Below the pieces are notes generated by a model. The model saw nothing but the letters and a program-made list of their open reading frames with translations. It was not told where the DNA came from and searched no databases. The position numbers and the translations under genes were made by a program. A stretch of 64,000 nt of DNA from an uncultured Gammaproteobacteria bacterium (GTDB lineage: Bacteria; Patescibacteriota; Microgenomatia; Levybacterales; UBA12049): assembly GCA_964490105.1 (NCBI GenBank), contig CAZAZU010000001.1:22706-86705 (forward strand), in the 5' to 3' direction. Position 1 is the stretch's first letter; every line of letters begins with the position of its first letter. Shown piece after piece: positions 1,368 to 47,582 of this stretch.

Positions 1368-1880
1368 ATGATTAGTATAGTTGCTGCGATTGATTCTAAA
1401 AGGGGACTTGGTAAAAATAACGACTTGTTGTTCAAAATACCTGAAGATTTTAAAAGAATGCAGAAGCTCACGATGGGTCACCCGATAATTATGGGTCGCC
1501 GCACTTTTGAATCTATCGGTCGCATTCTTCCTGGCAGAACAAATATTATTATTACTCAAAATCCAAGTTTCAAGCTTTCAGATTTAGCCTCGCAAGGGGA
1601 CGCCTTGCAAGGCTACGTGGTAAATTCGTTAGAGAAGGGAATTGAGGTAGCGAAGAAGAGTCCGGGGAGCGAGGAAATAATTATTTTCGGCGGGGGACAG
1701 ATTTTTACAGAAGCCATAGAAAAAGAATTGGTGGATGTTTTACATTTAACAGTGGTTGAGGGAGATTACAGTGCAGATACCTTTTTCCCAGATTATTCAA
1801 GATACGATAAAGTTTTATATGAAGAAAAAGGGGAGTCCGGCCAATATAGATTTACTTTTTTAGATCTTACGAGGAGTTAG
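1368..1880 (+). CDS. folA: dihydrofolate reductase
   Basis: IVAAIDSKRGLGKNNDLLFKIPEDFKRMQKLTMGHPIIMGRRTFESIG, GRTNIIIT: classic DHFR N-terminal motifs. Confidence 0.93.
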   Translation: MISIVAAIDSKRGLGKNNDLLFKIPEDFKRMQKLTMGHPIIMGRRTFESIGRILPGRTNIIITQNPSFKLSDLASQGDALQGYVVNSLEKGIEVAKKSPGSEEIIIFGGGQIFTEAIEKELVDVLHLTVVEGDYSADTFFPDYSRYDKVLYEEKGESGQYRFTFLDLTRS

Positions 1881-3999: not shown

Positions 4000-5521
4000 T
4001 AAAAAAATATTTGTCGTAGACTTCGGCGGACAAACCGCTCACCTCATAACTCGACGTCTTAAAGATCTAGGAATTAATTCTCAGTTAATTGATCCTGAAA
4101 ATGCCGTAAAAATTTCATTGAAAAATAAGCCATCGGGTTTGATCTTTTCCGGTGGGCCAGCATCTGTTTACGAAACTTCTGCCCCAACAATTGATGTAAA
4201 AATATTTGAACTCGGTTTACCCATACTTGGAATTTGTTATGGCTGGCAGCTTATGGCTCATCTACTTGGTGGGGAAGTGGAGTCGGGAAATAAAGAATAT
4301 GGGCCAACTATATTAACAATTTCAGGATTTGATTCTTTGTTTTATGGTCTTCCGAATTTTACAAAAGTAATTGAATCACATGGAGATACTGTTAAAAAAA
4401 TGCCATCAGGATTTGTGGTGACAGCAAAAACTGAAACCGTAAAATTTGCTGCTGTAGAAAATCCTAAGAAAAAATTATACGGAGTGCAGTTTCACCCTGA
4501 AGCACATCATTCAGAAAAAGGATCTGAGATGCTCAAAAATTTCGCAACTCGTGTATGTAATTTAGGGCTGTCTCCTCAGAAATTAGACACAGATGAAATC
4601 ATTAATGAAATAAAAGAAAAAGTAGGAAATAAAAAAGTGATTGGTGCTTTTTCTGGCGGAACTGATTCTGCTGTGGCTGGAGCATTAGTCGCAAGAGCGA
4701 TCGGGAAAAATTTTATTCCATTTTTTGTAGATTCAGGTCTTATGCGGGAAGAAACAATCGGAAGAATTGAAAAAGATTTTCCAAAAGTCTTAGGTGTACC
4801 GGTCGAAATAATTTCAGCCCGTGAATTGTTTCTTGCGCGACTTAAAGGATTGACTGATCCGGAGGAAAAAAGAAAAGCAGTTGGAAAATTATATATAGAA
4901 CTTTTTGAAAAAGAAATGAAAAGACATAAGGATGCGATTTTTCTTCTTCAGGGTACAACTTATGCGGATTTTATTCATTCGCAGGGAACTAAATTATCAG
5001 CGAGAATTAAATCTCATCATAACGTAGGAGGTTTGCCTAAAGAAATGAAGCTAAAATTACTTGAGCCTCTTAGATTTTATTACACAGATCAGGTAAGAGA
5101 AATTGGAGTTAAAATTGGACTTCCTCGTGACATGGTTTATCAACAGCCTTTTCCTGGACCTGGGCATGCAGTAAGAATTGTAGGAGAAGTGACCCCCGCA
5201 CGGCTTAAACAGCAAGTTCAGGCAGATGGGATAGTAGTTGAGGAGCTTAGAAAATCAGGTTGGTATAAAAAAGTTTTTCAATGCTGGTCTGTTATGACTG
5301 GGACAAATTCTACAGCGGTAAAAGGAGACGGGAGGTTTTATGGAGAAGTGATAGCTATAAGAATTGTTAATAGTAAAGATAGAATGACTGCGGAAATTGC
5401 ACGAGTTCCTTTCCCAGTTCTTGAAAAAATTGCATCTCGAATAGTAAATGAAGTTCCAAATGTTTCGCGAGTAGTTTATGACATTACCTCTAAACCTCCA
5501 GCAACAATGGAATGGGAATAA
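3962..5521 (+). CDS. guaA: GMP synthase (glutamine amidotransferase + ATP pyrophosphatase)
   Basis: KKIFVVDFGGQ, GICYGWQLM, HPE, P-loop GAFSGGTDSAV; true start may be the ATG at 3980. Confidence 0.9.
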   Translation: MTYLSQMQDKTTNKKIFVVDFGGQTAHLITRRLKDLGINSQLIDPENAVKISLKNKPSGLIFSGGPASVYETSAPTIDVKIFELGLPILGICYGWQLMAHLLGGEVESGNKEYGPTILTISGFDSLFYGLPNFTKVIESHGDTVKKMPSGFVVTAKTETVKFAAVENPKKKLYGVQFHPEAHHSEKGSEMLKNFATRVCNLGLSPQKLDTDEIINEIKEKVGNKKVIGAFSGGTDSAVAGALVARAIGKNFIPFFVDSGLMREETIGRIEKDFPKVLGVPVEIISARELFLARLKGLTDPEEKRKAVGKLYIELFEKEMKRHKDAIFLLQGTTYADFIHSQGTKLSARIKSHHNVGGLPKEMKLKLLEPLRFYYTDQVREIGVKIGLPRDMVYQQPFPGPGHAVRIVGEVTPARLKQQVQADGIVVEELRKSGWYKKVFQCWSVMTGTNSTAVKGDGRFYGEVIAIRIVNSKDRMTAEIARVPFPVLEKIASRIVNEVPNVSRVVYDITSKPPATMEWE

Positions 5522-9537: not shown

Positions 9538-10665
9538 ATGATATTAACTATTCTTGTCTTCTTACTAATGCTTTCAGTTTTGGTCCTAATTCATGAATTA
9601 GGTCATTATCTGGTTGCAAGAAAATTCGGAATAAAAGTTGAAGAATTCGGATTTGGATTTCCGCCTCGTGTTTGGGGTAAAAAAATAGGAGAGACTCTTT
9701 ATTCTGTAAACCTTCTTCCGATCGGAGGATTTGTAAAGTTGTACGGAGAGGATGAGGCTGGAGCGGGAAAAATAAGCAAAGGAAAGAAAGTTACAAAAGA
9801 TCTTGATCGTGCTTTTTTTGCAAAACCAATTTATCAAAGAATTTTAGTAGTGATCGCTGGGGTAACAATGAATTTTATTTTAGCTGTAATAATTGTTACT
9901 TATCTTTTTACGACTGATGGAATTCCGACACCTGGAACTACAGTGACTTTAACAGAAATTGCTAAGGGGTCTCCAGCTGAAACTGCAGGTCTTAAAAAAG
10001 GAGATATTGTCCAAAAGATCGGAAGTATAGAGATTAAAGATACTCAGACTTTAGTAACTCAAGCGAGAAAAAATTTAGGAGAAGAACTTACGATTACGGT
10101 TCTTCGCTCTAAGGGTCTAGGTAAGGAAAGAGTAGATACGATTGAGCAAATAAAAGTTACTCCTAGGAAAAATTTTCCAGCAGGGGAAGGGCCTATGGGA
10201 ATTGCAATTTCCCAAAGTGTAGATATTAGAAAATATCCGTTCCCACAAAGCATGGTAGAAGGTACAAAGCAGGCTGTAAAAGACTCATGGCAGGTGGTCA
10301 TAGGATTTAAGATGGTAGTAACAGAAATTATAACCCGGTTTACCGTTCCTCAGGGTGTAGCCGGACCGATCGGGATGGCACAGCTCACTGGAGAATTTGT
10401 AAGAGTGGGCCCAGCTGCTGTTCTAGCATTGGTCTATACATTGAGTTTGAGTCTTGCTGTACTAAACGTACTGCCAATTCCTGCACTTGATGGAGGGCGT
10501 TTGTTATTTATCCTGATAGAAGCAATAACTAGAAGAAAAGTGAATGCAAGATTCGAAGCCTATGCACATTTAGTAGGTTTGGTTTTGCTGCTCAGTTTCC
10601 TGGCATTAGTTTCATATAAGGACATCATAAGAATCGTCGCAGGTCAATCAATTTTACCTCAATAA
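9538..10665 (+). CDS. rseP: RIP zinc metalloprotease RseP (M50 site-2 protease with PDZ domain)
   Basis: HELGHY zinc motif, PDZ region AKGSPAETAGLKKGDIV, LDGG motif. Confidence 0.9.
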   Translation: MILTILVFLLMLSVLVLIHELGHYLVARKFGIKVEEFGFGFPPRVWGKKIGETLYSVNLLPIGGFVKLYGEDEAGAGKISKGKKVTKDLDRAFFAKPIYQRILVVIAGVTMNFILAVIIVTYLFTTDGIPTPGTTVTLTEIAKGSPAETAGLKKGDIVQKIGSIEIKDTQTLVTQARKNLGEELTITVLRSKGLGKERVDTIEQIKVTPRKNFPAGEGPMGIAISQSVDIRKYPFPQSMVEGTKQAVKDSWQVVIGFKMVVTEIITRFTVPQGVAGPIGMAQLTGEFVRVGPAAVLALVYTLSLSLAVLNVLPIPALDGGRLLFILIEAITRRKVNARFEAYAHLVGLVLLLSFLALVSYKDIIRIVAGQSILPQ

Positions 10666-10674
10666 TTTAATTTT

Positions 10675-11070
10675 ATGGCAAGAATCCAGAAAACAGAAGA
10701 AGAGTGGAAGAGATCTCTTACGCCCAAGCAATACGAAATTCTAAGAGAAAAGGGGACAGAGCCGGCTTTTACAGGGGAATTTGTGGATAACCATGAGGAT
10801 GGAGTGTATTCGTGTGTAGCATGCGGAAATACTTTATTTGATTCGGGAACTAAGTTTGACTCAGGAAGCGGATGGCCAAGTTTTTATGATGTTGCGACAA
10901 AAGGCAACGTAGTTTTAGAAGATGATAATAGTCACGGGATGACACGAACTGAAGTGAAATGTGCGAATTGCGGGGGACATTTGGGACATGTATTTACTGA
11001 TGGACCGAGGGATAAAACAGGGCTTCGTTATTGTATTAACTCCTGTGCGCTAGATTTTAAGAAAGCTTAA
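10675..11070 (+). CDS. msrB: peptide-methionine (R)-S-oxide reductase
   Basis: CVACGNTLF...GWPSF...[19 protein letters not shown]...RYCINS. Confidence 0.93.
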
Positions 11071-16353: not shown

Positions 16354-16408
16354 AATTGCGCAAATATACTCTTTGAAGTTTAGGCTGTCAAGAGTATATA
16401 ATCTATGA

Positions 16409-19804: not shown

Positions 19805-19862
19805 CCCACTAATATATCAGTTCTCGTTGACAAATTAGAAGAGCGAACATAGACTATTAGTA

Positions 19863-20768
19863 ATGAAAATCGGAATAATCGGGCTTGGTAAAATGGGCTC
19901 TCGAATTGCTCAAAAGCTTTCCGATGAGCATGAGGTATCAGTTTGGAATCGTTCGCCGGAAGATATAGAAGAGCTAAAAAAAGTATCAAAAGTCCAGGGG
20001 TTTGATTCTGTTGAAGCTTTAGTTAGCAATTTGCCTTCCCCTAAAATTATTTGGATTATGGTGCCGCATGTGGCAGTTGAAGAGGTATTAACAGAAGTTA
20101 AAAAGTTTGTTTCCACCGGAGACATCGTAGTAGACGGAGGAAATTCCAATTACAAAGATACAGACAGAAGATTTTTAGAATTCGAAAAAGCAGGGATTAA
20201 ATACTTAGGAATTGGAGTAAGCGGAGGAATAATTGCGTTTAAAAATGGATATCCGCTGATGGTTGGGGGGAATCGCGAAGCATATGAAGCGATTATTCCA
20301 ATTTTAGATACTTTAGCAAAACCCACTGGCGGACATGAATATTTCGGGACAGGAGGAGCTGGGCATTTTGTAAAAATGGTTCATAACGGAGTGGAATATG
20401 CCCAGATGCAAAGTATTGGCGAAGGATTTGAAATTCTGGAAAAATCAGCTTATAAATTTGATTTATCAAAAATTGCCAATCTTTGGAGTAAAGGAACAAT
20501 AGTATCAGGGTTTTTAATTGATAGAGCATCTGAGAGTTTGAATAGAGATTCGAAGCTTTCAGAATTTTCCGGGCCAATAGCTAGAAGCGGAGAAGGAGAC
20601 TGGACAATTCTTGCGGCGGAGGAAGAAGGAATTGACCCAGAAATAATCAACGGCGCAGTAGAATTCAGAAAAAAATCTGAAATAGATGAAGATATACAAA
20701 ATTCATTTACCGCAAAAATGATTAACTCACTTCGTAATGCATTTGGCGGCCACGAAATTAAAAAGTAA
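19863..20768 (+). CDS. gnd: 6-phosphogluconate dehydrogenase, short (GntZ-like) form
   Basis: MKIGIIGLGKMGSRIAQKL NAD-binding, GTGGAGHFVKMVHNGVEYAQMQ. Confidence 0.88.
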   Translation: MKIGIIGLGKMGSRIAQKLSDEHEVSVWNRSPEDIEELKKVSKVQGFDSVEALVSNLPSPKIIWIMVPHVAVEEVLTEVKKFVSTGDIVVDGGNSNYKDTDRRFLEFEKAGIKYLGIGVSGGIIAFKNGYPLMVGGNREAYEAIIPILDTLAKPTGGHEYFGTGGAGHFVKMVHNGVEYAQMQSIGEGFEILEKSAYKFDLSKIANLWSKGTIVSGFLIDRASESLNRDSKLSEFSGPIARSGEGDWTILAAEEEGIDPEIINGAVEFRKKSEIDEDIQNSFTAKMINSLRNAFGGHEIKK

Positions 20769-20833: not shown

Positions 20834-22102
20834 ATGAAATACTCTACTTTTTTTCCAAAAGCCAGGAAGTCAGAATTTAAAGATGATCTATCTATTAATG
20901 CGAAATATTTAATAAAAGCAGGCTACATCGATCAGCTAATGGCTGGTTCATATACATTACTCCCCTTAGGTTTTCGAGTTGTGCAAAATATAAATAATAT
21001 TATCCGGGATGAATTAAATAAGACTGGTGCGCAGGAGTTATTAATGCCGCTTCTTCATCCTCGGGAGATTTGGGATCAGACCGGTAGATGGAGCGATCCA
21101 GATGTAAAACAAATTATGTATCAGTTTAAGGATATCCATGATAAAGAATTTGGATTATCTTTTACTCATGAAGAAATAGTAATGAATTTACTAGGTAAAA
21201 TGGTGCAGAGCTATAAAGATTTACCGGTTAAGGTTTATCATTTTTCTACTAAATTCAGAAATGAACCGAGGGCAAAATCAGGAATTTTAAGAGGAAGAGA
21301 ATTTATGATGAAGGATTTGTATTCTGCGCATGTTTCTGAGGAGGATATGTATAAATATTATAATTTGGTAAAAGAAGTTTATCCAAAAATATTTAAGCGT
21401 TTGGGTTTGGAAGCTTTAACAGTAGAAGCAAGCGGAGGAGTATTCACCGATAAAAATAGCCACGAATTCCAGGTTTTAAGTGAAGTTGGAGAAGATACTA
21501 TCTTTTTCTGTGATTGTAGCGGAAAAAGCTGTGATTGTCGATTTGCTCAAAATAAAGAATTGTTTGCGGGTGCTGATGGAGATAAATGCCCGGAATGTGA
21601 TGATTGCACTATAAAATCTGCAAAATCGATAGAAGTTGGAAATATTTTTCCGCTTGGGACTAAATATTCTCAGAATATGAAAGTTTTATATACCGATGCC
21701 GAAGGTAAAGCACAAAATATCTGGTTTGCGAGTTATGGAATTGGACCAACGAGAGTTATGGGAACTCTCGTAGAAGTTTTTCATGATGATAAAGGAATTA
21801 TCTGGCCAAAAAGTGTTGCACCATTTCAAGTGTATTTGATTAGTATCATGAATCAAGAATCAAGTATTAAGGAAGAGACGGAAAAAGTTTATAAAAAATT
21901 GCAAGAGGCCGGAGTTGAGGTTTTGTGGGACGACAGAGAAGTAAGTCCTGGAGAAAAGTTTGCAAATGCTGATCTCCTAGGTTTTCCTTATCGTTTGGTA
22001 ATCTCTCAAAAAACAGGGGATAAAATTGAATTTAAAGAAAGAAAAAGTGAAGATGCTTCGCTTTTAAGCCTAGATGAAGTAATTTCTAGAATTGAGGAAT
22101 AA
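20834..22102 (+). CDS. proS: prolyl-tRNA synthetase, minimal form with a Cys-rich insert in place of the editing domain
   Basis: Class II motif 2 FRNEPRAKSGILRGREFMMKD; C-terminal anticodon-binding domain; insert CDCSGKSCDC...CPECDDC. Confidence 0.85.
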   Translation: MKYSTFFPKARKSEFKDDLSINAKYLIKAGYIDQLMAGSYTLLPLGFRVVQNINNIIRDELNKTGAQELLMPLLHPREIWDQTGRWSDPDVKQIMYQFKDIHDKEFGLSFTHEEIVMNLLGKMVQSYKDLPVKVYHFSTKFRNEPRAKSGILRGREFMMKDLYSAHVSEEDMYKYYNLVKEVYPKIFKRLGLEALTVEASGGVFTDKNSHEFQVLSEVGEDTIFFCDCSGKSCDCRFAQNKELFAGADGDKCPECDDCTIKSAKSIEVGNIFPLGTKYSQNMKVLYTDAEGKAQNIWFASYGIGPTRVMGTLVEVFHDDKGIIWPKSVAPFQVYLISIMNQESSIKEETEKVYKKLQEAGVEVLWDDREVSPGEKFANADLLGFPYRLVISQKTGDKIEFKERKSEDASLLSLDEVISRIEE

Positions 22103-22505
22103 AAGGAATCTGAAGTTTAAATACGTAAATCCACACGAATGTATAAGCTACAAGTAGAACAATAACTCCGAGACCTAAAACTAACGACATAACTTTTGAT
22201 CCGCCTCTTTTTACCGTAGCACCCTGATTTTTACCAGGATTATTCGCATTAAAAGCAATTGTTCCTCCGATTGGAGAAGGAGCGGCAGGAGCTGCGGGAG
22301 CCGCTTGCGGAGTCACTTCAGTTGGTACGACGGGAGCTTGCGGTTGAACTGGAATAGGAGTAGACGAAGTGCCCATTTGCGGAGAAAACGGTGCCGGAGC
22401 AGGCGGAGGGGGAACTGTTCCTGGTGGAGGTACAGCAGGGCCATTCATTACTCTATCATATGCTTCTTGAAGTTTTGGGTCAGTCGCGGACAGCTTTGGA
22501 TCCAT
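22086..22505 (-). CDS. Pro-rich protein with C-terminal transmembrane anchor
   Basis: PPPGTVPPPPAPAP repeats, C-terminal hydrophobic helix; preceded by the palindrome-promoter module. Confidence 0.55.
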   Translation of the reverse strand: MDPKLSATDPKLQEAYDRVMNGPAVPPPGTVPPPPAPAPFSPQMGTSSTPIPVQPQAPVVPTEVTPQAAPAAPAAPSPIGGTIAFNANNPGKNQGATVKRGGSKVMSLVLGLGVIVLLVAYTFVWIYVFKLQIPFIPQF

Positions 22506-22530
22506 ATAATCTAGTTTAGCGCATCGGTTG

Positions 22531-22559
22531 TTTTTGTCAACCCCGATTAAATCGGGGTT
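22531..22559 (-). promoter_or_regulatory. 17-bp palindrome CCCCGATTTAATCGGGG fused to TTGACA -35, 16-nt spacer, TAAACT, 7 nt to ATG (copy 1; minus orientation)
   Basis: 26-nt exact identity with copy 2 at 44439-44464. Confidence 0.6.
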
Positions 22560-22567
22560 AATATAGC

Positions 22568-23458
22568 TTATCGTGCTTTGGTAAGAAGAATCTCTACAAA
22601 CTGGTTAAAATTTATACCTGATGCCTTAGCTGCTTTTGGAATTAAACTTTCAGATGTAAGGCCAGGAATTGTATTTATTTCTAAAGCGTAAGGGATGTTT
22701 TGTGAATAAATGAAATCAGTCCTCGAATAAGTTCCAAAATCAAAATTATTGTGAATCTTAAGTGCTATCTCTTGAGCTTCTTTTTGTTTGTTTACTGGCA
22801 CAGATGGGGCATTTGGAATTTCTTTTGTGCCAGATGTGTATTTATTTTCATAACTGAACCATTCTCCTTCAGGAGGTTTTATTTCAATTACTGGAAGCGC
22901 TTTACCATCTAGAACTCCGACGGTAATTTCTACTCCATCTATATATTTTTCAACATATAATTTATAGTTTGAGTTAAGTAAAAATTTGGCATTTTTTATA
23001 TTTAAGTCTTTTTTAGATTTGAGAATTACTACTTCATGAGAAGAGCCGCCGTGAGATGCTTTTAGAACGCAAGGAAATCCAAATTTTATAATATCCTCTT
23101 TAGTTTTAATCTCAGTCCATGGGGAAGTGGGAAGACCCGATTTTGTCGCAAATTTTTTAAATGGAATTTTATACCATCCATTTTGCATGCCTTTATAATT
23201 TCTCGTTCCGACAATCGGTTTATCGATTTTATTTAAAAATTCGTGAAGCTGGCCACCTTCTCCTTCTTCTCCATGGAGAACAGGGAATAGGGTTTCGAAG
23301 TTTTTTGCTAGCCTTATTATCGGTTCATATCCCTTCCTAATATCGAATTGTTTTACTTCATGCCCATTTTCTTCGAGCGCTTTTTGCACATTCTTAGCTG
23401 AAGTTAGTGAAACGATTCTTTCAGAAGAGTCACCGCCTGTGATAAGTAAAACCTTCAT
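22568..23458 (-). CDS. ddl: D-alanine--D-alanine ligase
   Basis: ATP-grasp; LHGEEGEGGQLHEFL, EINTIPGLTSESLIPKAAKASGI. Confidence 0.9.
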   Translation of the reverse strand: MKVLLITGGDSSERIVSLTSAKNVQKALEENGHEVKQFDIRKGYEPIIRLAKNFETLFPVLHGEEGEGGQLHEFLNKIDKPIVGTRNYKGMQNGWYKIPFKKFATKSGLPTSPWTEIKTKEDIIKFGFPCVLKASHGGSSHEVVILKSKKDLNIKNAKFLLNSNYKLYVEKYIDGVEITVGVLDGKALPVIEIKPPEGEWFSYENKYTSGTKEIPNAPSVPVNKQKEAQEIALKIHNNFDFGTYSRTDFIYSQNIPYALEINTIPGLTSESLIPKAAKASGINFNQFVEILLTKAR

Positions 23459-33083: not shown

Positions 33084-33168
33084 TCGGAGCGATTATTGGC
33101 GGATCTTCGTCGGTTTGAAATAACAGATCTCCTTGACAACTTTTTCTAAACTGGGTAGTCTAGAGTAG

Positions 33169-33873
33169 ATGGAGAAAATTTTTAAAAACCTCTTACTTAC
33201 ATTAGCAATCATTCTTCTTGCTGGTGTATTTTATACCACTAACTCTTTTGCGAATGAAGATGGGCAGTCTGATGTCACTCCTGAGATAACTCAGTCTGCG
33301 GATACCACTCCTACAATAAAAAGATTTAGGCCCGAAAATGCTAAGGAGAGGATTCAAAATGCAAAGGAAAAAAACCAGGAACTTAAAGAAAAAAGAGATG
33401 CCAGGATCACTGAAATGAAACTAAAGAGGGAAGAGAAATTATCAGAAGCTAGATTAAAGATTTGTGAAGCTCGAGAAAAGAATATTGAAAATCGTGTTGA
33501 GATGATGAAAAAAAGAGCGGAAGTAATTCACAAAGGACACGAAAAAATATACCAAAGGGTTGATCAATTTTATAACAATAAGTTAGTTCCAAATGGATAC
33601 ATACTCTCGAATTATGCAGAACTGAAAGCAGAAGTTGCGGCAAATAAAGAAAACGTAAAGACTGCTCTTGAAACTGCAAAAGCAAGTCGTGAAGAATTTG
33701 ATTGCAATTCAACTGATCCAAAAGCTCAGGTGGATGTATTTAAGGAAGATATGAAGGAATTGATAGAAGCGAATAAAGCATATAAAGAATCAATCCATAC
33801 TTTTGTAAAAGCAGTCCGCGATTTAGCAAAAACAGTAACGCCGGTACCAACAGCGGGGGAGGTAGCTCCATAA
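33169..33873 (+). CDS. secreted Lys/Glu-rich coiled-coil hypothetical protein
   Basis: Signal peptide LLLTLAIILLAGVFYTTNSFA; charged heptad-like repeats. Confidence 0.55.
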   Translation: MEKIFKNLLLTLAIILLAGVFYTTNSFANEDGQSDVTPEITQSADTTPTIKRFRPENAKERIQNAKEKNQELKEKRDARITEMKLKREEKLSEARLKICEAREKNIENRVEMMKKRAEVIHKGHEKIYQRVDQFYNNKLVPNGYILSNYAELKAEVAANKENVKTALETAKASREEFDCNSTDPKAQVDVFKEDMKELIEANKAYKESIHTFVKAVRDLAKTVTPVPTAGEVAP

Positions 33874-34481: not shown

Positions 34482-34501
34482 TGCCTTCGTTTGCAAATTA
34501 T

Positions 34502-34533
34502 AACAGCCCTGCAATAAGGGCTGTTATTTTTTT
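34502..34533 (+). terminator. rho-independent terminator AACAGCCCT-gcaata-AGGGCTGTT + TTTTTTTT
   Basis: 9-bp GC-containing stem, 6-nt loop, 8-T run. Confidence 0.8.
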
Positions 34534-36079: not shown

Positions 36080-37315
36080 CTACTCTGTATCTGGGATTTG
36101 GTAGCTTCTGGGGTCTGGTGTTTTTCTCTCAACAGTTATTTGTTCCGAAAGACTAATTCTTCGTGCAACTTCACGATTCGTAGAATCATCTTTAGAAACA
36201 ACAACTCTCACGTGTTCAGTAGATAAAGGTGGTTCGCTTGTTTTATCATAGCCTCCGCCAGAGGCTAATATTAGACCTAATTGACTTGTTATACCCGCTA
36301 ATCCAGCTTCTTTTCCTCTAACTACGAGCGTTGGTGTTCTGGGATCAGTTGGTAGAATATCAATTCCGTATCTATCGAGTTCTTGTGTTAAAATTCCTTT
36401 AGCATGAGCAATTTTTGGACGCACGTCTAAAAGATGCGGTAAGACAATTCCATTTTGCCATAGCGCATTTATTAGAAGTCCGCTTTGACCTCTAATGTAT
36501 CTGTCTCCCATAGCTCGTTCAAAATTCGGTCCTATGGAATTATGCATAATTGCTATTCCAAAACCCAACCCCGGAAGCCCCAGCGTCTTTGAGGCATCTC
36601 TATAAACCCTAAGTCTTCCGTTAGTCATAGTTTCTTTAGCTAAAGACTCTTCGTCATCTGCTACATCTAGTCCTACTTCATCAGCCTCAACGATAGTTCC
36701 TTTAGAAGTAAAATGGTTAACAAATTTTAATGAAGCATTTCGACTTGCTATATCGCCTTTAAAATCAGCGCGGGCAAAATAAATACTTGCAAGTTTTATA
36801 GGTCTTTTTTCATGTTGCTCAATTACATTTTCTAAAGCCTCATCTGCGGATAAATTAATGTTAGGGGAGTAAGGGAATGGTAACAAACCGCCAATTATTT
36901 GAAGTTGAGTCAGGTATCCAGGATAATGTGGTCCAACTTCAGCTGCTCTCGGTGGATTTTTAGGGTTTTTCGGAATTAGGATTAGTGAAGTTCTGAGGAG
37001 TCCGTCAACTCCTGTGCCAGAATTAAAAACCACATGTGATCTTTCATCTAATCCAAATCTTTCTCCTACCGCATCTCGCGCAGGGGCAAGATCTGGAGAC
37101 CAATACGTTTCCCGTGCTCTTCTTCCCTCGTCGCTTGAGAGTATTCCTATTTCTCGTTCTTCCCATCCTCTCGGAGAGCCAAACGGAGAGATGCCATCAA
37201 CTAGCTCAATTTTCGGTAAATTACCAGAAATAATTTCTCTTTCTCCATAAGAGCGAGCGACCTTTATAGTTCTGTTTCCTCGGGGTATTCCCCGTAAATC
37301 TTCTTGGTTTGCCAT
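36080..37315 (-). CDS. class I/II aminotransferase-fold protein (HisC/CobD-like), divergent; possibly non-catalytic
   Basis: RDASKTLGLPGLGFGIAIM aligns to the RTLSKAFALAGLRCGF PLP-lysine segment; VEADEVGLD ~ VVADEAY; FNSGTGVDGLL ~ SRGADEGIELL; but NPTG, Tyr and Arg positions appear substituted. Confidence 0.5.
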   Translation of the reverse strand: MANQEDLRGIPRGNRTIKVARSYGEREIISGNLPKIELVDGISPFGSPRGWEEREIGILSSDEGRRARETYWSPDLAPARDAVGERFGLDERSHVVFNSGTGVDGLLRTSLILIPKNPKNPPRAAEVGPHYPGYLTQLQIIGGLLPFPYSPNINLSADEALENVIEQHEKRPIKLASIYFARADFKGDIASRNASLKFVNHFTSKGTIVEADEVGLDVADDEESLAKETMTNGRLRVYRDASKTLGLPGLGFGIAIMHNSIGPNFERAMGDRYIRGQSGLLINALWQNGIVLPHLLDVRPKIAHAKGILTQELDRYGIDILPTDPRTPTLVVRGKEAGLAGITSQLGLILASGGGYDKTSEPPLSTEHVRVVVSKDDSTNREVARRISLSEQITVERKTPDPRSYQIPDTE

Positions 37316-38893: not shown

Positions 38894-38914
38894 GTGGTAA
38901 CCTTCAAGGCTTAT

Positions 38915-38944
38915 AAACAAACCGCACGCTTATGCGGTTTGTTT
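38915..38944 (+). terminator. terminator hairpin AAACAAACCGCA-cgctta-TGCGGTTTGTTT, probably bidirectional
   Basis: 12-bp perfect stem, T-rich 3' side; lies between convergent genes. Confidence 0.65.
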
Positions 38945-38945
38945 A

Positions 38946-39437
38946 TTAATTAACTGAGCTTGAAGCGGAATTTTTCCCAATCAGTATTTTATTTAGCAAA
39001 TTAACGCTTTCATTTAGTGCGGATTTAAAAAACATTTTATCTTTTTTATCTATTTTTATTTTTATGTGATAGGTTCCTTTAGTATCCCTCTTCCAATCCC
39101 ATTCAGTGACACCGGTAAATGAAGCTTTACGATATCCGTTTTTTACTTTTATCTGACATAAGTATTCAAGAATTATGTGTTCAAATAAATGTCCAATTTC
39201 TGTATTTCTGACTTCTTCTCTGAATGGAAGATTTGAATCATTAAAGCATTCATTGTGTAGGACCTGAGGCAACGTCCTTTCTAAGATTGAATGTGTTAGC
39301 GGAAGATGTTTGGTATGAAAATGAGGAGTATCTAAGAGCATGGTAATGCTCGTTTCCTGGGAAGAAAAATTATTTACTGCCAATTTATACTGACCGTAAT
39401 TAGTAAATGTCTGGTTAATATCTTGGATAATGCTCAT
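38946..39437 (-). CDS. hypothetical protein (163 aa)
   Basis: ORF with native composition; no motif recognised. Confidence 0.5.
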   Translation of the reverse strand: MSIIQDINQTFTNYGQYKLAVNNFSSQETSITMLLDTPHFHTKHLPLTHSILERTLPQVLHNECFNDSNLPFREEVRNTEIGHLFEHIILEYLCQIKVKNGYRKASFTGVTEWDWKRDTKGTYHIKIKIDKKDKMFFKSALNESVNLLNKILIGKNSASSSVN

Positions 39438-43943: not shown

Positions 43944-44006
43944 GGTTTGCTTATTGCATGGAAATCTAATAATTGATTGAATCAAACTAGAGAGGAGGTG
44001 AATCTA

Positions 44007-44432
44007 ATGAATATAGAAGTAAATTATTTAGCACTAATTTTAGCAGTGGTTGTTTCCATGGTAATCGGTTTTGCTTATTACATGAATCCAATTATTGCAA
44101 AACCATGGATGAAATTAATGGGCTATTCTAAAGACGACGTGAAGCCTACTGGAAATGAGATGGCAAAAATGTATGGAACAAGCGCAGTGCTTGCTCTAAT
44201 AACAGCTTTTGTTTTATCCCACGTAATGACTATGTCAATTTCGTATTTTAATTATTCTCCAGTTATGACTGGGGTGATTAGTGCATTTTGGATGTGGTTA
44301 GGTTTTATAATGCCAGTACAAGCAACAGATGTTTTATTTAGTAAAAAACCCATGAAGCTTTTTGCGATTAATACTTTTCATCAATTGCTTTCGTTACTAG
44401 GAATGGGAATTGTGATTGGATTGGTTAGATAG
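44007..44432 (+). CDS. DUF1761-family membrane protein
   Basis: MNIEVNYLALILAVVVSMVIGFAYY...KPW; SD AGAGGAGGTG upstream of the ATG at 44007 (ORF-track start 43977 is less likely). Confidence 0.65.
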   Translation: MNIEVNYLALILAVVVSMVIGFAYYMNPIIAKPWMKLMGYSKDDVKPTGNEMAKMYGTSAVLALITAFVLSHVMTMSISYFNYSPVMTGVISAFWMWLGFIMPVQATDVLFSKKPMKLFAINTFHQLLSLLGMGIVIGLVR

Positions 44433-44438
44433 TGTCGT

Positions 44439-44483
44439 CCCCGATTTAATCGGGGTTGACAAAAGCTATAAAAACAATAAAAT
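44439..44483 (+). promoter_or_regulatory. 17-bp palindrome CCCCGATTTAATCGGGG fused to TTGACA -35, 16-nt spacer, TAAAAT, 6 nt to purK ATG (copy 2; plus orientation)
   Basis: 26-nt exact identity with copy 1; same spacing and leaderless geometry. Confidence 0.6.
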
Positions 44484-44489
44484 CAAAAC

Positions 44490-45623
44490 ATGATTTACCC
44501 CGCAACGATTGGCATAGTAGGCGGTGGACAGCTCGCTAAAATGCTCACAATTGCTGCAAAGAAAATGGGGTTTAGTGTTATTGTTACAGATCCGACTCCC
44601 GGAAGTCCTGCTGGTCAAGTTGCTGATCGCGAGTTAGTCGGTGGTTATAAAGACGAAAAAGTAACCCGTGAATTAGCTAAGCTTTCTGACATAATTACTG
44701 TTGATGCAGAATTTGTTAATGATAAAGTTTTATCAGAAATTGAAAAATCAGGAAAGCCTGTTCATCCATCTCCCAAGACAATCTCGATTATTAAAGATAA
44801 ACTTCGGCAAAAAGAATTTCTAAGAAAAAATAGTATTGCTACAGCAGAATTTGTTCCTGTTAAAAATACAAACGACATAAAAAAAGCCATTAAGAAGTTT
44901 GGGTTACCAATTTTATTAAAAGCTCGGGAAGATGCTTACGACGGAAAGGGCAACTTCGTTATAAAAAAGGAATCAGATGTTGAAGAGGGTTTAAAGAAGC
45001 TTGAAGGTAGATCTCTTTATGTTGAGAAATTTGTGCCATTTGTTAAAGAGCTTGCAATAATGGTCGCAAGAACACCAGGTGGGGAGATCGCCGCATATCC
45101 GGTGGTTGAGACAATTCATGTAAATAATGTATGTGATACTGTAATTGCGCCGGCAAAAGTTTCGAAGAAAGCTGTAAAAAATGCCACAAATTTAGCAAAA
45201 AAAACTATGAAGCAGCTTAAGGGGGCTGGAGTTTTTGGAATTGAAATGTTTTTAATTAAAGGGGATAAGGTTCTCATTAACGAAATAGCTCCACGTGTTC
45301 ATAACTCAGGTCATTACACAATTGAGGCGAGTATTACATCTCAATTTGAACAGCATATACGGGCAATTACAGGATTGCCGCTTGGTTCAACTGATTTAAT
45401 GGTAAAATCTGCAGTAATGAAAAATATTTTGGGAGAGAGAGAAGGATCAGGGTATCCTATGGGAGTTGAAAAAGCATTGAAGATTTCTGGAGTTTCATAT
45501 CATTTATATAATAAAAAAGATTCGAGGGTTGGAAGAAAAATGGGACATATTACAGTATTTGGAGATAGTGAGAAGATTAATTTGCAAAAAGCGAATAAAG
45601 CAAGAAAAGCATTAATAATATGA
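44490..45623 (+). CDS. purK: N5-carboxyaminoimidazole ribonucleotide synthase
   Basis: ATP-grasp; TIGIVGGGQLAKML; purE follows. Confidence 0.88.
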   Translation: MIYPATIGIVGGGQLAKMLTIAAKKMGFSVIVTDPTPGSPAGQVADRELVGGYKDEKVTRELAKLSDIITVDAEFVNDKVLSEIEKSGKPVHPSPKTISIIKDKLRQKEFLRKNSIATAEFVPVKNTNDIKKAIKKFGLPILLKAREDAYDGKGNFVIKKESDVEEGLKKLEGRSLYVEKFVPFVKELAIMVARTPGGEIAAYPVVETIHVNNVCDTVIAPAKVSKKAVKNATNLAKKTMKQLKGAGVFGIEMFLIKGDKVLINEIAPRVHNSGHYTIEASITSQFEQHIRAITGLPLGSTDLMVKSAVMKNILGEREGSGYPMGVEKALKISGVSYHLYNKKDSRVGRKMGHITVFGDSEKINLQKANKARKALII

Positions 45624-46135
45624 AAAAAGAAGTAGCAATTGTAATGGGATCTGATTCGGATCTTTCTGTTATGAAAGATGCTGCTGAAATATTAGAAAGT
45701 TTTGGAATAGGTTATTATCTTTCAATTGTCTCGGCGCATAGAACACCCCAGAGACTATTTGATTTCTCAAAATCTGCAGAAAAAAAAGGATTTAAAGTTA
45801 TTATTGCAGGAGCAGGTGGATCAGCACATCTGCCTGGGATGATTGCTTCTCTTACTCCGCTTCCTGTAATCGGAGTGCCAATTAGAGGAAAATCTTTTGA
45901 AGGATTTGATTCATTAATGTCTATTGTTCAAATGCCTCCAGGAATTCCCGTTGCAACTGTTGCAGTAAATGGTGCAAAAAACGCAGGAATTTTAGCAGCA
46001 AGTATTATCGGCATAAGTAATAAGAAGGTTCTAGGAAAAGTAGCCGAATTTAAAAATAATTTAGAGAAAGAAGTTTTAAAAAAAGTTCAGAAAATTGAAA
46101 AAGTAGGATTTCAGAAATATCTTGATGAAAAATAA
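45620..46135 (+). CDS. purE: N5-CAIR mutase
   Basis: VAIVMGSDSDLSVM, AGGSAHLPGMIAS. Confidence 0.92.
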   Translation: MKKEVAIVMGSDSDLSVMKDAAEILESFGIGYYLSIVSAHRTPQRLFDFSKSAEKKGFKVIIAGAGGSAHLPGMIASLTPLPVIGVPIRGKSFEGFDSLMSIVQMPPGIPVATVAVNGAKNAGILAASIIGISNKKVLGKVAEFKNNLEKEVLKKVQKIEKVGFQKYLDEK

Positions 46136-47582
46136 TTCTCAAAACGAAAAAGTTAACGTTGTAGACAAAAATTTAAAAACTCTTTATAAAACCACGAAAA
46201 AAGAAGCTCACGAAAAAGGATTACTTCATAAGACTGTTATAGCTGAGGTGGTTGATTCCAAAGGGAGATATTTGCTCGTTAAACAAGCTCCAGACAGACA
46301 AGACGCGGGAAAATTTGTTTCTCCAGTTGGAGGGCATGTAAGATCGAATGAAACAGATGAAGAAGCTTTAGAAAGAGAGGCGTTTGAAGAATTAGGAATT
46401 AAAAACTTCAGCCATGAATATTTGGGGAATATTATTTTTAACAGAAAAATACTTGGGAGAGCGGAAAATCATTACTTTATTATTTATAAAATAAAATGGG
46501 ACAAGAAAATAAAATTAAATCATGAGTCAGTTGAAAGCAAGTGGTTTACTGTTAAGGAGTTAAAATTTGCTTTAAAAAATAATAGAGAAATTTTTGGAGC
46601 AGCATATTTAACTTGTCCGCTTGAAATGTATTTAGGAACCGTTAAAAAAAGTATGGAGAAAAATAAAAATGCATTAATTAAAACAGTTGATTTAAAAGGA
46701 TTTGGGAAAAAATATCAAGGAAAAGTTAGGGATTGCTACATAAAGGGAGATAAAAGAATTCTCGTTACAACTGATCGAATTTCTGCGTTTGATGTTATTC
46801 TTGGATTTATTCCTGGGAAAGGTGCGGTGCTAAATCAGTTAGCTGCTTTTTGGTTTGAAAAAACTTCGGACATAATCCCGAATCATCTTATTTCAGTTCC
46901 TCATCCGAATGTGAGTATTGTAAAAAACGTAAAATTAATTCCTATTGAAATGGTTGTAAGAGGTTATATCTCTGGTGTTACTAATACGTCAATATGGGGT
47001 AGTTATCAAAAGGGGGAGAGGGTTATTTATGGAATAAAATTTCCTGATGGACTATCTAAAAATCAAAAATTAAAAACCCCAGTTATTACTCCTACGACTA
47101 AAGCAGAGTCAGGGCACGATGAAAGATTAACTGAGAAAGAAATTATTGATCGAAAAATAGTGACTCCTGGAATTTGGAAGCAAATGAAAAAAGCAGCATT
47201 AGAATTATTCGAAAGAGGAACTAAAATTTGTGAAAAAGGCGGAATAATTTTAGTTGATACAAAATATGAATTTGGACTAGACTCAAGCGGGAAGTTAATT
47301 TTAATTGATGAAATACACACTCCTGATTCTTCAAGATTTTGGATTAAAAAAACTTATAAAGCGCGAATAAAGAAAGGGTTGGAACCGGAAAATTTCGATA
47401 AAGAATTTTTAAGACTTTGGTATGCAAAAAGAGGTTATACCGGATCAGGAAAACCTCCGAAAATGCCGTCAGTACTTGCAAATCAAGTAAGCAAACGTTA
47501 TATTCAAATATATAAAAAGATCACCGGAAAAATACCTGAAAAAGAAGTGGTTCCATTAAGAGAATTACAGATTCAAATTTAG
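46122..47582 (+). CDS. purC: Nudix hydrolase domain fused to ADE1-type SAICAR synthetase
   Basis: Nudix box GGHVRSNETDEEALEREAFEELGI; then GKVRDCYI...LVTTDRISAFDV, MVVRGYISG, ILVDTKYEFG, HTPDSSRFW. Confidence 0.85.
   Translation: MMKNNSQNEKVNVVDKNLKTLYKTTKKEAHEKGLLHKTVIAEVVDSKGRYLLVKQAPDRQDAGKFVSPVGGHVRSNETDEEALEREAFEELGIKNFSHEYLGNIIFNRKILGRAENHYFIIYKIKWDKKIKLNHESVESKWFTVKELKFALKNNREIFGAAYLTCPLEMYLGTVKKSMEKNKNALIKTVDLKGFGKKYQGKVRDCYIKGDKRILVTTDRISAFDVILGFIPGKGAVLNQLAAFWFEKTSDIIPNHLISVPHPNVSIVKNVKLIPIEMVVRGYISGVTNTSIWGSYQKGERVIYGIKFPDGLSKNQKLKTPVITPTTKAESGHDERLTEKEIIDRKIVTPGIWKQMKKAALELFERGTKICEKGGIILVDTKYEFGLDSSGKLILIDEIHTPDSSRFWIKKTYKARIKKGLEPENFDKEFLRLWYAKRGYTGSGKPPKMPSVLANQVSKRYIQIYKKITGKIPEKEVVPLRELQIQI

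Follow-up and report, generated by a model that had tools for sequence, protein, structure and literature searches.

Four kinds of small repeat come closest in behaviour to the element described here, a 17-bp palindrome that occurs twice in a 64-kb stretch of contig CAZAZU010000001.1 (hereafter the window, meaning the whole of the 64,000 nucleotides analysed). They are the MITEs (transposable elements of miniature size with inverted repeats), the repetitive extragenic palindromes (REPs), the small dispersed repeats (SDRs) of cyanobacteria and the Rickettsia palindromic elements (RPEs). RPEs are ∼100–150 bp long and are not known outside Rickettsia. Elhai et al. reportedly judged in 2008 that the cyanobacterial SDRs, hairpin repeats of 21–27 nt, are mobile, from their nesting and from orthologous loci, with no enzyme identified. 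REPs affect upstream mRNA, as work in E. coli established, and they are not known to make variable 4-bp direct-repeat flanks. Prokaryotic MITEs span 50–800 bp, with terminal inverted repeats of at least 10–15 bp and target duplications of 2–10 bp (PMC11602168). REPs carry a GTAG or CGTC tag at the palindrome end and occasionally lie in genes, including replication genes (PMC3733652); they flank a single-copy RAYT (REP-associated tyrosine transposase) gene (PMC3116915, PMC2817692) and exceed 100 copies per genome (PMC2817692). The original prediction for this locus was that the palindrome is the operator of a dimeric regulator. We consider it likely to be instead a dispersed, insertion-polymorphic 17-bp mobile element of Microgenomates (Patescibacteria, or candidate phyla radiation, CPR).

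The repeat had been described as a 26-mer, CCCCGATTTAATCGGGGTTGACAAAA, present twice with 26/26 identity. An exact match search bears out the identity and gives two copies in the window, one at 44439–44464 on the plus strand, as reported, and one at 22532–22557 on the minus strand, whose start had been placed one base off at ∼22531. No match to the 26-mer appears in 100 dinucleotide-preserving shuffles, even with up to three mismatches, and this result together with a palindrome scan of the window rules out chance duplication. The palindrome itself, CCCCGATTnAATCGGGG, consists of two 8-bp inverted repeats round one free base. With up to three mismatches allowed, its only copies in the window are the two listed here; both are perfect and abut a −35 TTGACA, just as had been claimed.

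22541..22557, no strand assigned: element copy 1, reading CCCCGATTAAATCGGGG on the plus strand (match search; ortholog site comparison)
44439..44455, no strand assigned: element copy 2, CCCCGATTTAATCGGGG (match search; ortholog site comparison)
22558..22561, minus strand: left flank of copy 1, TTAA, a decayed 4-bp target-site duplication (TTGA)
44433..44438, plus strand: left junction of copy 2, TGTCGT, with no recognisable target duplication
22535..22540, minus strand: −35 TTGACA at copy 1, the initial TTGA of which is also the target duplication's right-hand copy
44456..44461, plus strand: −35 TTGACA of the purK promoter, with the same spacing in orthologs that have the palindrome (filled) and orthologs that lack it (empty)

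The last nine bases of the 26-mer, TTGACAAAA, are host promoter sequence, and orthologous promoters free of the palindrome also read TTGACAAAA. The 26/26 identity thus arises because a 17-bp element stands beside 9 bp that both promoters have in common anyway. The window, part of a 465-kb metagenome contig, has a G+C content of 36% and derives from a Levybacteria genome; its PurK and Ddl homologs belong to named Levybacteria (Microgenomates/Patescibacteria), and the whole window gave no Rfam match at gathering thresholds.

Copies elsewhere bear the marks of insertion. A scan of GTDB representative genomes for the palindrome alone yielded 124 copies among the matches listed, many of them in Microgenomates and other Patescibacteria. 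Exact 4-bp direct repeats lie on both sides of 16 of these 124 listed copies, against 0.48 expected; in the same copies, offset flanks gave 0–2 such repeats, while 5-bp repeats numbered one and 3-bp repeats six. The duplicated sequence is TTGA/TCAA in six copies, CTGA in three, TAAA in two, and TTAG, TGAA, CAAA, CCAA and CCAG in one each. Such 4-bp direct repeats are the signature of insertion with target-site duplication, with YTGA preferred. Metagenomes were scanned with the pattern CCCGATTNAATCGGGGTTGAC, which requires a right-hand TTGAC and leaves the left flank free. At least 120 loci were found, mostly from groundwater and sediment, with ∼110 unique copies against fewer than one chance match expected. 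The unconstrained left flank is itself TTGAC in 75 of 106 unique copies among the matches listed, the usual form being TTGA-(17-bp palindrome)-TTGA-C, and the free centre base in these 106 copies is A in 47, T in 31, C in 18 and G in 10. As to density, the window holds 2 copies in 64 kb, and a further 11 copies beyond the seed were counted in 407 kb from 28 loci, each 10 kb or longer.

The presence of the palindrome varies at orthologous sites. The purK site was compared across seven distinct ortholog contigs, in most of which the DUF1761-purK synteny is kept (L244, L245, L247, L273). Three are filled, with L245 and L246 sharing one allele and L273 carrying a variant whose central base is deleted; four are empty (L244, L247, L274, L275). 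Upstream of purK, L244 (PurK 93% identical), L247 (81%) and L275 (66%) read TAR-CCCA joined directly to TTGACA, free of the palindrome. The allele of L245 and L246 (PurK 90%) is longer than the empty sites by exactly 21 bp, made up of TCAA and the palindrome, and the sequence left of the L245 palindrome is GCCATCAA. The −35, the spacer length and the ATG are the same whether the palindrome is present or not, and the −10 region AATAAAATCAAA is kept in six of the seven loci, L274 having AATAGAATCAAA. In a neighbour-joining tree of PurK, filled and empty states are interleaved, and each of the sister pairs window/L244 and L273/L247 joins one filled and one empty site. To produce this interleaving, the palindrome must have been gained more than once at the same TTGA or else precisely lost more than once; either behaviour is that of a mobile element, not that of an operator under conservation. 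Conservation of the dyad upstream of purK in relatives had been proposed as a check on the operator; with four of seven ortholog contigs empty, it is not conserved.

At the promoter of a proline-rich membrane protein gene, where copy 1 lies, three states are seen among relatives. L248 reads ...ATAC-TTGA-palindrome-TTGA-CAAAAACC, a perfect 4-bp duplication, and a single G>A change separates its left TTGA from the TTAA of the window. L249 reads ...ATAC-TTGACAAAAAAACC, with no trace of the palindrome. L250 has a decayed copy, TTTAC-CTGGATTAGATTGGGG-TTGACA, that is unable to pair and differs by five changes, one in the left TTGA and four in the palindrome. The arrangement TTGACAAAAA...TAAACT...ATG is preserved in the window, L248, L249 and L250 regardless of palindrome state, the TAAACT −10 being identical in four of four loci. 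The orthologs of the gene in L248–L250 start MDPKL..., and the ortholog in L215 is also preceded by the element.

The element is found within genes as well. In-frame copies, in several frames and on both strands, occur in ATP synthase alpha (AtpA), DnaE, LeuRS, a FolC-like Mur ligase and a TrxB-like oxidoreductase, where they encode DPDSIGV, TPIKSGx or PRLNRGQ according to frame and strand. The reading frame stays open through 150 nt on each side in 7 of the 16 duplication-flanked copies. Nesting is seen as well: L101 matches its ortholog L203 apart from exactly 21 additional bp within the loop of a resident copy, and, compared with its homolog in L121, L111 has an exact insert of 7 aa (TPIKSGS). 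Tandem hairpin-TTGAC-hairpin-TTGAC arrays, direct and not inverted, are present in L133, L142, L152, L169, L172 and L181, as a mobile element would produce when its regenerated target is hit again.

In the mechanism we propose, an element made of inverted repeats alone would insert with a 4-bp duplication, adding 21 bp, that is, 7 codons or about two helical turns. Its preferred target would be YTGA, above all TTGA. When the TTGA within a sigma-70 type −35 TTGACA is hit, the product would read TTGA-(palindrome)-TTGA-CA, in which the right-hand TTGA would restore the −35 at an unchanged distance from the −10, so that the promoter would keep working; the 21-bp increment would likewise keep the reading frame and, roughly, helical phase. 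Both window copies would then be insertions into pre-existing promoters, those of the proline-rich gene and purK, with the promoter belonging to the host and not to the repeat. Because the −35 is restored, insertions could be harmless and could accumulate in scarce non-coding DNA, and the frequent association with promoters is explained by target choice, not by regulation. The simplest idea for the mover would be a staggered-cutting transposase acting in trans, the target duplications pointing to staggered double-strand cleavage rather than the single-strand route of IS200/RAYT enzymes. A bolder claim seems to us evenly balanced: that this is the smallest DNA element seen to transpose with target duplications, active across Patescibacteria, mobilised by an enzyme, led by its YTGA preference to nest in −35 boxes that it rebuilds, and adding loops of 7 residues to essential proteins (AtpA, DnaE, LeuRS), with the same stem capping rRNA helix tips.

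The promoters and genes at the two sites are as follows.

22513..22518, minus strand: −10 TAAACT at copy 1, separated from the −35 by 16 nt and from the ATG at 22505 by 7 nt
22086..22505, minus strand: gene for a proline-rich single-pass membrane protein of 139 aa with no Pfam family, probably leaderless
22568..23458, minus strand: Ddl, D-Ala-D-Ala ligase, co-directional upstream gene, stop codon 10 nt before the palindrome
44478..44483, plus strand: −10 TAAAAT of the purK promoter, separated from the −35 by 16 nt and from the ATG at 44490 by 6 nt
44490..45623, plus strand: purK, head of a nine-gene purine cluster, probably leaderless
43977..44432, plus strand: DUF1761 membrane protein gene, co-directional upstream gene, stop codon 6 nt before the palindrome

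The promoter part of the original prediction is supported. The geometry it gave (TTGACA, 16-nt spacer, TAAAnT, 6–7 nt to the ATG) is found at both copies, and the promoters it proposed gain support from seven further Levybacteria contigs, whose orthologous loci keep the −35, 16-nt spacer, −10 and ATG. Annotation likewise recovers its nine-gene cluster: purK, purE, NUDIX-purC, purF, purN, purD, purL, purQ and purM. The geometry suggests that the purK and proline-rich gene transcripts are probably leaderless. TTGACA-17-TAnnnT promoters without the palindrome lie 5–10 nt before the starts of 132–380-aa open reading frames (ORFs) at 2823–2859, 19827–19865 and 33133–33171 on the plus strand and at 16391–16351 and 15958–15917 on the minus strand; the ATG follows 5–7 nt on at the genes at 2857, 19863 and 33169. 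Promoters of this leaderless type are therefore a habit of the window's genome, which suggests that leaderless or near-leaderless mRNAs are common in it. The purC gene of the window (46122–47582) is fused to an N-terminal NUDIX domain (486 aa), a fusion common to L245, L246, L247 and L273; the purC of the closest relative, L244, encodes 307 aa with the SAICAR synthase domain only.

Beyond the window, a TAnnnT follows at a spacer of 16–18 for 47% of element-adjacent TTGAC sites versus 12% of other TTGAC in the same loci, and an ORF starts 33–41 nt downstream of 29% versus 8%. In about half of copies, the element-adjacent TTGAC thus behaves as a real −35. Palindrome and promoter could be imagined to travel together, as a mobile promoter cassette that brings transcription to new genes, since the 26/26 identity includes TTGACAAAA and the same 26-mer precedes guaB in the unrelated contig L105. 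However, the empty sites already have TTGACAAAA with the same spacer length, −10 and ATG; between the two window copies neither the spacers nor the −10 boxes are related, and identity stops right after TTGACAAAA; and in the unbiased GTDB set most target duplications have no promoter behind them. Such a cassette strikes us as highly improbable.

It is also unlikely, in our view, that a dimeric transcription factor binds the dyad near −44 and co-regulates purK-purM, the proline-rich gene and others. The site does resemble the operator of a dimeric helix-turn-helix regulator, being a perfect 17-bp dyad with a free central base whose promoter copies always lie directly against the −35. Its sequence is identical across divergent genomes, and nucleotide-metabolism genes recur behind it, with the full 26-mer before guaB-guaA (L105) and a copy before pyrG (L065). 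It also recurs at hrcA, groES and lon promoters, and tandem copies stand 21–22 bp apart, which fits cooperative binding. Yet in close relatives the same promoters may have the palindrome, lack it (in sister lineages) or show it decayed, the promoter itself being unaltered in each case, and both already have a consensus −35 and a good −10. Copies are flanked by variable 4-bp target duplications, full copies lie within ORFs of housekeeping genes on both strands, and nesting in other copies would destroy the outer site. Nor do the downstream genes form a coherent set. They include hrcA, groES, lon, gmd, xerC-like integrases, a tRNA and many small membrane proteins behind the metagenome copies and, in the GTDB scan, guaB-guaA, pyrG, an MgtE-like gene and glnA; they have no common function.

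The predicted co-regulation of the pur cluster and the membrane protein fares no better, as more than 100 metagenome contigs have the palindrome before unrelated genes. A generic dispersed repeat, the outcome named beforehand as speaking against the operator, is essentially what was found. A purine regulon, suggested by the 26-mer before guaBA and the copy before pyrG, was given up in view of the broader range of genes found downstream and of the purK alleles that are empty. The original prediction had itself remarked on the lack of an obvious regulator, and no candidate was found among the genes annotated around the two sites, whose only DNA-binding products are an OmpR-type response regulator and YbaB. 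In a hybrid version of the operator, a mobile element carries the binding site and thereby spreads a regulon; given the polymorphism, any protein-binding role would have to be secondary. A secondary effect on the promoter is possible, as the element replaces the DNA at −36 to −52.

What the palindrome does as RNA is a separate matter. Both window copies start just past the stop codon of a co-directional gene (10 and 6 nt), a feature absent from the original prediction, and they fold stably: the hairpin alone has a folding energy of −9.9 kcal/mol, copy 1 with flanks −15.4 (z = −4.2) and copy 2 with flanks −18.8 (z = −4.8), the TGTCGT left of copy 2 pairing with the TTGACA on its right to give a longer hairpin. 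These folds could act on the upstream transcript as a terminator, 3′-end stabiliser or insulator, possibly exapted from a mobile element, in which case this role and the mobile origin would be compatible. Empty alleles have 4 nt between stop and −35, so the insertion supplies the sole structure between the genes. Compensatory variants occur in the same TTGA...TTGAC frame (CCCCGCTTGGCGGGG, CCCCGAAAATCGGGG, CCCGACTCAGTCGGGG), and the stem caps many rRNA helices of contig L211, indicating that it is tolerated or favoured as RNA. Against this, neither copy is followed by a U-run or backed by a T-run, as already observed, although the organism has canonical hairpin-plus-T-run terminators. Copies lie inside ORFs, and structure alone leaves unexplained a sequence identity that holds across phyla-level divergence. 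In a heuristic ORF map of ∼80 copies with an upstream gene called, that gene is divergent in ∼40 and co-directional in ∼43; nothing ends at the divergent ones, so the hairpin is not simply a terminator. We find such a role for the hairpin a little more doubtful still than the operator. An effect on upstream mRNA of a hairpin 6–10 nt past the stop is possible.

No canonical intrinsic terminator was detected at either site: the terminator scan was negative, and the hairpin is followed by TTGACAAAA with no U-tract. Elsewhere in the window, 34500–34527 is a canonical hairpin and T-run terminator (ATAACAGCCCT...AGGGCTGTTAT TTTTTT), and 38913–38946 holds a hairpin with a 14-bp stem and no T-run; they show ordinary intrinsic terminators to be in use in the window's organism.

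The rRNA operon of L211 carries the stem many times.

L211, 3874–7051, minus strand: 23S rRNA gene with stem-capped helices
L211, 9635–11125, minus strand: 16S rRNA gene with stem-capped helices

The stem CCCCGAU...AUCGGGG caps many 16S and 23S helix tips, also with other loops. The 23S gene has four exact 17-mers (4598, 5229, 5400, 6352) and the 16S gene three copies, exact at 10676 and with one mismatch each at 9711 and 9989. The 16S helix-17 copy is a native helix of Rfam-consensus length followed by native UUGAC, and the element plus TTGAC resembles this native rRNA segment. The palindrome is also present in the 23S genes of L021 (Amesbacteria) and L068 (Daviesbacteria).

Several points weigh against a mobile element. 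No mobilising enzyme was identified in the loci searched, and no CCCCGATT...AATCGGGG pair 0.3–4 kb apart and enclosing a transposase was found in 1.7 Mb searched; it is hard to see how a conventional transposase would synapse two ends so close together. At 17 bp with 8-bp ends, the element is far below any described MITE (PMC11602168). The purK-site copies have no clean TTGA duplication, their left flanks reading TGTCGT, CATCAA and TTCCT. The ATAC/TTGA junction of L249 was considered as a clean empty site and dropped, since its intergenic length differs from that of the filled Ddl-site allele by 8 bp, not 21, so that the two do not make a clean empty/filled pair; L249 counts simply as an intact promoter without the palindrome. 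The L211 rRNA copies have no 4-bp duplications and partly replace native helices, so a process besides simple insertion, or selection on the hairpin, also operates. The same promoters are hit repeatedly (hrcA in five contigs, groES in two), and function, instead of a hot spot or common ancestry, could lie behind this recurrence. Finally, genome-wide copy number is an estimate, ∼2 per 64 kb.

RAYT-like genes were sought by tblastn with approximate IS200/RAYT queries and then with two CPR Y1 proteins. RAYT-like Y1_Tnp genes turned up in four loci, L103, L152, L166 and L225, and none in the window. These too speak against the mobile element: other palindromes flank the genes in L103, L152 and L225, and the L166 gene runs off the contig end. 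A link to RAYT mobilisation was accordingly not established, other hairpins flanking these genes. In L103, three copies of CAGGGCgagGCCCTG, with AGCCTC...GAGGCT-type ends, flank and lie within the Y1 transposase gene and may form with it a genuine REP/RAYT pair in CPR genomes; in L225, CCAGAGGTGG-type repeats flank the RAYT-like gene. Palindromes with AGCCTC...GAGGCT or CAAGGCT ends occur in the window (1586–1614, 36250–36266) and in L103 (2534–2561, 2749–2763, 3301–3315). As a repeat family, AGCCTC...GAGGCT was discarded as too loose a pattern, with 19 matches in all searched sequence, two of them in the window.

Other observations concern the surroundings of individual copies. In L137, L138, L168 and L223, the stretch from the −35 to the hrcA start, directly downstream of the element, contains CIRCE-like inverted repeats (TTAGCACTC-N9-GAGTGCTAA type), and one is also present in the divergent lon promoter of L098 (2058–2140). 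The ATP synthase alpha gene of L022 (∼2350–2480) carries a TPIKSGQ insert right after the P-loop region DTIINQ, and directly behind it comes an unrelated GC-rich palindromic insert (KDSPRSAGGAG; ctcgctccgcgggcggagcgggtg); with two such unlike inserts, there seems to be more than one family of tiny palindromic inserts. The in-frame copies of L193, in a FolC-like ligase (735–751) and a P-type ATPase (4685–4701), share extended flanks, KVS..S-TPIKSGS-KVSK (gatacttttga repeats), which hints either at a composite unit of greater length or at a target that is strongly favoured. In L077 (4757–4900), a CTGA-flanked copy (4861–4877) lies 30 nt from tRNA-His (4757–4831, minus strand) with the tRNA-end-like sequence CTGAGCTACAACCACCA on both sides; the copy may have inserted into a second tRNA gene, one no longer picked up by ARAGORN. 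The same palindrome in another frame, GGATT-palindrome-AATGACA, occurs in L005, L009, L010, L023, L032 and L113, from Nitrospirota, Thermodesulfovibrionales, Nitrospinota, Methylomirabilis and a deltaproteobacterial metagenome-assembled genome, and looks like a separate repeat family. Viral contigs gave 22 matches, mostly ordinary A-run/hairpin/T-run terminators with a TTGA duplication in only one, and carriage of the element by phages was rejected on these grounds. A literature search by sequence found no paper containing the palindrome, nor did anything relevant come up for CPR/Patescibacteria promoters, palindromic repeats or leaderless transcription.

If the palindrome is a mobile element, identical dyads before two CPR operons should not be read as a regulon; here they would be insertion marks. 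A parasite that targets and restores the −35 could occupy the sparse non-coding DNA of a ∼1-Mb genome without silencing genes. The 7-aa inserts in ATP synthase, DnaE and tRNA synthetases, together with the rRNA caps, mark it as a candidate driver of the unusual insertions reported in the proteins and rRNA of CPR bacteria. It would thus be a recurrent source of variation in promoter context, proteins and rRNA in genomes regarded as streamlined and as holding little mobile DNA. The question raised is which enzyme can move DNA that hardly exceeds the enzyme's binding site in length. Closely related natural populations, with their filled and empty alleles, offer ready material for testing the effect of the hairpin on transcription.

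Among known systems, the element is best filed as a very small palindromic mobile repeat with a notable twist, a target inside the −35 box. Like MITEs, it has inverted repeats at its ends and short flanking duplications, is non-coding, non-autonomous and mostly intergenic, and is polymorphic for presence. It also shares an association with promoters with the Correia elements of Neisseria, as far as the reference list of PMC11602168 indicates. Its 4-bp duplication lies within the 2–10 bp range of MITEs, whereas its length and inverted-repeat size do not reach theirs, so that 17-bp mobile DNA with 4-bp duplications falls below the accepted MITE size range. With 8-bp arms, it has no internal sequence and no known parent insertion sequence, and it brings no promoter of its own but regenerates the host −35 through the duplication.

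The likeness to REP/REPIN-RAYT systems lies in a short GC-clamped palindrome with a predicted hairpin in single-stranded DNA or RNA, often just past stop codons, sometimes in tandem clusters and occasionally within genes, in the same kind of genomes that hold RAYT-like Y1_Tnp genes. The differences are that it has no GTAG or CGTC tag, its flanks being variable 4-mers, mostly TTGA or CTGA, and that its copies are single units rather than inverted doublets, at an estimated ∼2 per 64 kb. With the SDRs of heterocyst-forming cyanobacteria it appears to share very small hairpin repeats and nested insertions, but it comes from another phylum, differs in sequence and is smaller still; its clear 4-bp duplication and its target preference overlapping the −35 box may be further differences. 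RPEs are likewise palindromic in-frame insertions in the genes of a reduced genome, tolerated as extra peptide, although the insert here is 21 bp (7 aa) as against their ∼100–150 bp.

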